The notes under the pieces are model-generated. The model ran no database searches. It saw only the letters and a list, made by a program, of their open reading frames with translations, and was not told the origin of the DNA. Source: Escherichia phage BEU50. From it: a stretch of 64,000 nucleotides of DNA. The position numbers and the translations under genes are program-made. Positions 59,328 to 60,013 of this stretch are shown here, in pieces. How positions within the stretch are numbered: position 1 is the first letter of the stretch; each line of letters begins with the position of its first letter. Where the stretch lies: the sequence record OM632671.1, one strand, 5' to 3'.

Positions 59328-59558
59328 ATGTCTACTGAAACTATCGAAAAACTGCAGTCTGAAATCGTTACTCTGAAATCTCGCATTCTTGATACTCAAG
59401 ACCAAGCAGCTGCTATCCAGCAAGAATCTCAACAACTTGGTAGTGCTCTTGCTAAAATCGCTAATCTGGTTGGTATCACTGGCGAATCAGTTAAGATTGA
59501 TGACCTGGTAGAAGCAGTACGTGAACTTGTTAAAGCTGAAACCACAGAAGAAGAATAA
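59328..59558 (+). CDS. 57A: Tail fibre assembly chaperone gp57A
   Basis: 76 aa coiled-coil peptide ([14 protein letters not shown]). Confidence 0.8.
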
Positions 59559-60013
59559 TGAAATTTGAGGACTTTTCACAAGGCCTCTACGTCGCAGCTA
59601 AATTTTCGGAATTAACACTTGATGCGCTGGAAGACCTCCAGCGCAAATTAAGAATTCCTAATCCAGTACCACGTGAAAAGCTTCATTCAACAATTTGTTA
59701 TTCACGTGTAAACATACCATATACCACATCTAGTGGTAGTTATTCTGTTGCCGAATCAGGACACTTTGAGGTATGGAAAACTGACGACGGCGCTGTACTG
59801 GTTTTAGTTCTTGATTCTGAATATCTTAGATGTCGTCATCAGTATGCACGAGCTTTAGGTGCTACTCATGATTTCGACGACTACACTCCACATATAACGT
59901 TATCATATAACGTTGGCCAACTATCATTCAGTGGTGATGTAGCTATTCCGGTTATTCTCGACCGTGAATACAAAGAACCCTTAAAACTAGATTGGGCCGA
60001 AGATCTAAAATAA
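59558..60013 (+). CDS. 57B: gp57B / Acb1-like 2H phosphodiesterase (anti-CBASS)
   Basis: 151 aa with two H-x-T/S motifs (HSTI and HITL) typical of 2H phosphoesterases; position equals T4 57B, which is the anti-CBASS nuclease Acb1. Confidence 0.7.

Follow-up and report, generated by a model that had tools for sequence, protein, structure and literature searches.

Gene 57B was analyzed within a stretch of 64,000 nucleotides from Escherichia phage BEU50 (OM632671.1), referred to as the window throughout. The window is Mosigvirus (Tevenvirinae) DNA. Over the 1.4 kb around 57B, nucleotide identity is 99.6% to Escherichia phage a20 and at least 99% to about 20 other records; one of them, phage 308Ecol101PP (OR062945), is classified as Straboviridae, Tevenvirinae, Mosigvirus. 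The genes at the locus follow the order 4-2-3-1-57A-57B-ipI on the same strand, as in T4: upstream of 57B lie gp2 (DNA end protector), gp3 (tail completion), gp1 (dNMP kinase, PF21448) and gp57A, and ipI is followed by four small genes without assigned function and then by tRNA-Met and tRNA-Arg (Table 1).

Table 1. Positions in the window, strands and supporting observations of the features at and around gene 57B.
Feature	Position	Strand	Basis or remark
TATAAATA upstream of gene 4	56541-56548	+	motif match
TATAAATA, partner of divergent pair	56556-56563	-	pair lies between the leftward baseplate genes and gene 4
TATAAATA, T4 late-promoter-like, inside gene 1	58966-58973	+	585 nt upstream of 57B; candidate late promoter for 57A-57B
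Gene 57A (tail-fiber assembly chaperone)	59328-59558	+	Pfam PF17594 GP57, E 5.9e-23; PHROG 1002
acb1 (gene 57B) CDS	59558-60013	+	ATG-to-TAA ORF, 151 codons/aa, stop TAA
First catalytic H-x-T, H43-S44-T45 (T4 H44/T46)	59684-59692	+	columns invariant; catalytic role from PMC9117128
Second catalytic H-x-T, H112-I113-T114 (T4 H113/T115)	59891-59899	+	columns invariant; catalytic role from PMC9117128
C-terminal lid, residues 144-151 LDWAEDLK, with W146 (T4 W147)	59987-60010	+	T4 145-152 LDWADDLK; lid function from PMC9117128 and bioRxiv 10.1101/2025.08.21.671373
Early-promoter-plus-stem-loop (PeSL-like) cassette, end of the 57B unit ahead of ipI	60026-60067	+	sigma-70-like match and stem-loop
ipI (internal protein I, inhibitor of the GmrSD restriction enzyme)	60090-60377	+	Pfam PF11634 IPI_T4, E 1e-49; PHROG 4363
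Second copy of the cassette, 3' of ipI	60381-60422	+	
tRNA-Met (CAT) and tRNA-Arg (TCT)	61884-61957 and 61964-62040	+	

The stop codon of 57A and the start codon of 57B overlap in the sequence TAATG, the shared base being the A of the 57B ATG, which suggests that the two genes are co-transcribed and probably translationally coupled. An earlier reading made from the sequence alone (the sequence-only reading) had described 57B as embedded in the morphogenesis operon. By position this is correct, in that 57B is the last cistron of the series 4-2-3-1-57A-57B and overlaps 57A, but the gene sits at the edge of the block, directly before the anti-restriction gene ipI. The adjacency of 57B and ipI in T4 was read by Hobbs et al. 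as part of an anti-defense island (PMC9117128). T4 (Tequatrovirus) and six other genera of the Straboviridae, i.e. Tegunavirus, Acajnonavirus, Tulanevirus, Nanhuvirus, Schizotequatrovirus and Slopekvirus, share the order 3-1-57A-57B.

Matches to TATAAATA, the late-promoter consensus of T4, lie inside gene 1 and, as a divergent pair, ahead of gene 4. The match in gene 1 is offset from the start of that gene by 377 nt here versus 362 nt in T4, and counterparts of the motifs are found in T4 at 7006-7013 (- strand), 9350 (+) and 9365 (-) in the numbering of the T4 segment compared. The late-promoter layout thus appears to be conserved between T4 and the window, and 57B may be expressed partly from late promoters. 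Candidate late promoters inside gene 1 and ahead of gene 4 would fit the timing in T4 infection, where Acb1 activity sets in at about 15 min (PMC9117128).

The spacer between 57B and ipI contains a sigma-70-like promoter match (TTTACA-17-TACTAT with an upstream TG) that overlaps a stem-loop at 60035-60061. The stem of 10 bp has a folding energy of -16.8 kcal/mol (z -3.3; 0 of 200 shuffles fold as well); in the 57B-ipI spacer of T4 the stem-loop is degenerate, whereas here it is well-formed. A generic terminator scan 3' of 57B returned no G+C-rich stem followed by a T-run, and a canonical intrinsic terminator at the stem-loop was rejected because the T-run is absent; the structure was read instead as part of a PeSL-type cassette. 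The second copy of the cassette lies 3' of ipI; none would be expected by chance. Both copies, which flank ipI, share a composite motif in which GTTTACAT is followed by an inverted repeat that overlaps a -10 box (TAnTAT), and the repeat by CTATCAAA. In form they resemble the promoter-early-stem-loop (PeSL) cassettes known from phages of the T4 type (PMC2839356, PMC4122927).

A difference from a near-identical relative was observed at the second cassette. In 308Ecol101PP an extra ORF of 264 nt (WLY86043.1, hypothetical) lies between two copies of this cassette (segment 5379-5775), versus one cassette and no ORF in the corresponding region of the window (about 60378-60425). The first 18-19 residues of WLY86043.1 (MKTYKEFI..STLSE) are common to ipI, and this N-terminus presumably resembles the capsid-targeting sequence of the T4 internal proteins. 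The N-terminus shared with ipI suggests that WLY86043.1 may be a further internal protein targeted to the capsid, whose gene was acquired or lost when the cassettes recombined. The difference itself has the appearance of an ordinary indel bounded by PeSL cassettes, in a region known to be plastic.

The sequence-only reading had placed the 57B ORF at 59558-60013, and an ORF of 151 codons was found at exactly these coordinates on the + strand. The reading had further assigned the product to the anti-CBASS phosphodiesterase Acb1, pointing to tandem H-x-T/S motifs, HSTI and HITL, about 80 residues apart. HSTI (residues 43-46, nt 59684-59695) and HITL (residues 112-115, nt 59891-59902) both occur in the translation, and they are the only H-x-[ST] motifs of the protein. 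They are not arranged in tandem, however, and the histidines H43 and H112 are 69 residues apart rather than about 80. In the 2H fold the two motifs face each other. The motif pair taken alone is weak evidence, because 14% of the shuffled versions of the 57B protein also carry at least two H-x-[ST] motifs, and the significance of the pair was therefore taken from homology.

A search against Pfam gave the 57B protein a single significant match, to PF23474 (Anti-CBASS protein Acb1), with 197.3 bits (E 1.3e-58) at a curated cut-off of 27 bits and covering the full length of the profile (positions 1-144 of 144). Among NCBIfam models none matched the protein at E up to 1. Its best match among solved structures is the Acb1 of Erwinia phage FBB1 (PDB 7T26 apo, 7T27 with 3'3'-cGAMP; E 1.1e-58), which aligns over residues 9-148 at 63% identity with both H-x-T motifs in register. 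FBB1 Acb1 differs in having F and Y in place of W73 and F106, aromatic for aromatic, and in its first motif, which is HTT instead of HST. A compact 2H phosphoesterase fold is expected from this 63% identity over 140 residues to the crystal structure 7T26; a single-sequence AlphaFold2 model of the 57B protein (pLDDT 39.4, pTM 0.29) was too poor to serve as independent confirmation or for a fold search.

The closest known system is T4 Acb1 itself (gp57B, NP_049750.1; nucleotide sequence from NC_000866). The two proteins, of 151 and 152 aa, align without gaps and are identical at 129 of 151 positions (85%). The annotated T4 protein carries one extra N-terminal Met, and T4 residue numbers are accordingly those used here plus one. 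A codon-level comparison with T4 57B gave a dN/dS of about 0.06 at a dS near saturation, a ratio that marks 57B as a real gene under strong purifying selection. The 22 substitutions that separate the Mosigvirus protein from its Tequatrovirus counterpart all lie outside the named catalytic and ligand-contact residues. The nine functional residues identified in T4 (Y12, H44, T46, W74, F107, H113, T115, E141 and W147; PMC9117128) are without exception kept here as Y11, H43, T45, W73, F106, H112, T114, E140 and W146, so that the HxT/HxT tetrad, the stacking aromatics and the equivalent of E141 are identical, and seven of the eight lid residues match. The gap-free identity, together with the order 1-57A upstream and ipI downstream in both phages, bears out the orthology to T4 gene 57B on which the sequence-only reading relied.

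We extended the comparison to ten sequences, i.e. the 57B protein, T4 Acb1, FBB1 Acb1 and homologs from another seven phages, of which six are placed in named genera of the Straboviridae, with identities down to 27%. H43, T45, H112, T114, Y11 and E140 are invariant in this alignment, and W146 is nearly so. The catalytic histidines are thus retained with respect to T4, FBB1 and the seven more distant homologs, and their loss, which the sequence-only reading had named as grounds for refutation, did not occur. Based on these comparisons, the ORF is very probably the Mosigvirus ortholog of phage T4 Acb1 (gp57B), a compact metal-independent 2H phosphodiesterase. Homology, kept residues and gene order all speak for the anti-CBASS Acb1 reading and nothing directly contradicts it, and we infer the activity from the T4 ortholog. 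Acb1 has been known since 2022, and the gene described here is a typical, intact and in this sense already known member, located in its canonical place.

The function of Acb1 was established in T4. Starting from T4-infected cells, Hobbs et al. (2022; PMC9117128) purified an activity that degrades 3'3'-cGAMP and identified gene 57B as its source. The gene product, Acb1, is a 2H phosphodiesterase and breaks down CBASS signals. According to the same study, the tetrad H44, T46, H113 and T115 performs metal-independent acid-base catalysis via a cyclic-phosphate intermediate to yield linear GpAp, and the H44A/H113A mutant is inactive; Y12, W74, F107 and W147 provide base stacking, E141 recognizes the adenine N6, and residues 145-152 form a lid. 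Deletion of acb1 from T4 abolished the cGAMP-cleaving activity in lysates of infected cells and rendered the phage sensitive to CBASS, with a more than 300-fold poorer replication on CBASS-carrying hosts (PMC9117128). Nine further Acb1 homologs were assayed, and all nine cleave 3'3'-cGAMP and cAAA (PMC9117128). A requirement for the lid has been described along with experiments in which it was deleted (bioRxiv 10.1101/2025.08.21.671373). Later work found that T4 Acb1 also cleaves 2'3'-c-di-AMP and that its over-expression can trigger the Panoptes decoy system, while Panoptes defense was unaltered upon deletion of acb1 from T4.

By analogy with T4 and FBB1, the 57B protein is expected to clamp a 3'-5'-linked cyclic di- or trinucleotide containing at least one adenosine (3'3'-cGAMP, cUA, cAAA or cAAG). 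Binding would involve the aromatic residues Y11, W73, F106 and W146 together with E140, which would read the adenine N6, and the C-terminal lid (residues 144-151) would then shut over the ligand. The tetrad H43/T45/H112/T114 is predicted to carry out acid-base catalysis in which the 2'-OH of the adenosine attacks the 3'-5' phosphodiester, producing a 2',3'-cyclic phosphate intermediate that would be hydrolyzed to a linear 3'-phosphate. With the second messenger destroyed, the CBASS effectors would stay inactive and the infected cell would survive until the phage cycle is complete.

A different reading is invited by existing annotation, namely that 57B encodes a LigT-like 2'-5' RNA ligase or a cyclic phosphodiesterase of RNA repair that acts on RNA ends, e.g. 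in tRNA repair. LigT-type enzymes (PF13563) share the 2H superfamily and the two H-x-T/S motifs with Acb1, but their substrates are RNA ends and not cyclic oligonucleotide signals. PHROG 755, labeled 'RNA ligase', matches the 57B protein at E 2.4e-65, the product name 'RNA ligase' stands in many GenBank and RefSeq records including T4 NP_049750.1, and PF13563 (2'-5' RNA ligase superfamily) yields a sub-threshold match over residues 70-131 (E 0.013, 15.9 bits versus a cut-off of 27). This weak match is explained by the shared 2H superfamily, and the label is inherited from the same superfamily resemblance; the Acb1 model scores 197 bits against the 15.9 bits of the ligase superfamily, and the base-contact residues and the lid are all conserved. 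The biochemistry of the ortholog contradicts the ligase reading, since the T4 protein was purified by following 3'3'-cGAMP cleavage and its deletion removes this activity and sensitizes the phage to CBASS (PMC9117128). An RNA ligase or LigT identity was therefore rejected on the basis of the PF13563 score below cut-off and of the ortholog's biochemistry, and we regard it as extremely improbable. The idea that the two H-x-T motifs arose by chance in an unrelated or non-functional ORF, for which the frequency of motif pairs among shuffled sequences might be cited, can be dismissed altogether in view of full-length family and ortholog matches at E of about 1e-58 or better, invariant motif columns and strong purifying selection.

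The 57B protein could also be a true Acb1 whose substrate range has been shifted by the 22 differences from T4, for example by losing 2'3'-c-di-AMP cleavage or gaining other targets, so that a somewhat different set of defense systems is countered. Such a shift would be in line with the finding that in 2H phosphodiesterases the enzyme core determines substrate preference, which varies even among members of the structural group of T4 Acb1 (Doherty et al., 2025). All known contact residues are identical to those of T4, however, the nine further homologs all cleave 3'3'-cGAMP and cAAA (PMC9117128), and the FBB1 enzyme has the same activity at only 63% identity, which makes a shifted range very unlikely. 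There is a slim chance that the Mosigvirus allele has a shifted profile of the kind that would avoid tripping decoy systems such as Panoptes (e.g. through less 2'3'-c-di-AMP cleavage), or that the overlap with 57A is a deliberate timing device tying anti-CBASS function to late morphogenesis. A conventional Acb1 with the properties of the T4 enzyme remains the preferred reading.

The phage enzyme 2H PDE-9 (PDB 9Q2G/9Q2Y, deposited as 'Anti-CBASS protein Acb1'; Doherty et al., 2025) belongs to the 2H fold family and to the structural group of T4 Acb1, and both enzymes degrade 3'3'-cGAMP. Its histidines align with those of the 57B protein, but the match is marginal (E 0.007), the PDE-9 lid is N-terminal and not C-terminal as in Acb1, and PDE-9 cleaves 2'3'-c-di-AMP poorly. 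Apyc1 (MBL fold), the ring nuclease AcrIII-1 and poxvirus poxin likewise destroy a host nucleotide second messenger, although their folds are unrelated and their substrates are cCMP/cUMP, cA4 and 2'3'-cGAMP, respectively. A longer variant was seen in the 57B homolog of Klebsiella phage KP15 (2959-3582 of the segment compared; 207 aa). It continues for about 55 residues beyond the point where the C-terminal lid of Acb1 lies and contains a further insertion ahead of the last strand region, so that its lid might function in another way.

At the protein level, a search of the phage collection returned matches in 1469 records, 137 of them at 99% identity or more; proteins 100% identical to the one described here include those of E. 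coli O157 typing phage 6 and phage LF82-41. The product names of the matching records are mostly 'hypothetical protein' or 'RNA ligase', and among the records inspected only OR062945 annotates the gene as 'cyclic phosphodiesterase'. The name 'RNA ligase', which is also the RefSeq name of T4 57B, is a mis-annotation copied onward from PHROG 755. The proper name is acb1, or anti-CBASS cyclic-oligonucleotide phosphodiesterase, and neither 'RNA ligase' nor 'hypothetical protein'. As judged from T4, the phage is expected to resist CBASS systems that signal by 3'-5'-linked, adenosine-containing cyclic di- or trinucleotides, and such resistance is relevant to the choice of T4-like phages for therapy or host-range work. 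The mechanism-defining residues are unchanged and no new biology is involved; the practical value lies in the annotation.

Elsewhere in the window, the two tRNAs are the only matches to Rfam at gathering thresholds. At this place T4 has segB, eight tRNA genes and a pair of small stable RNAs. The gp2 homolog at 57027-57848 (+), for which Pfam gave no match at E up to 0.01, is composed of residues 1-78 matching phrog_32288 ('HTH DNA binding protein') and residues 78-272 matching phrog_429 ('DNA end protector'). The listed ORF 62011-62403 matches PHROG 3355 from residue 17 onward; its true start probably lies further downstream, because the listed start is inside tRNA-Arg.
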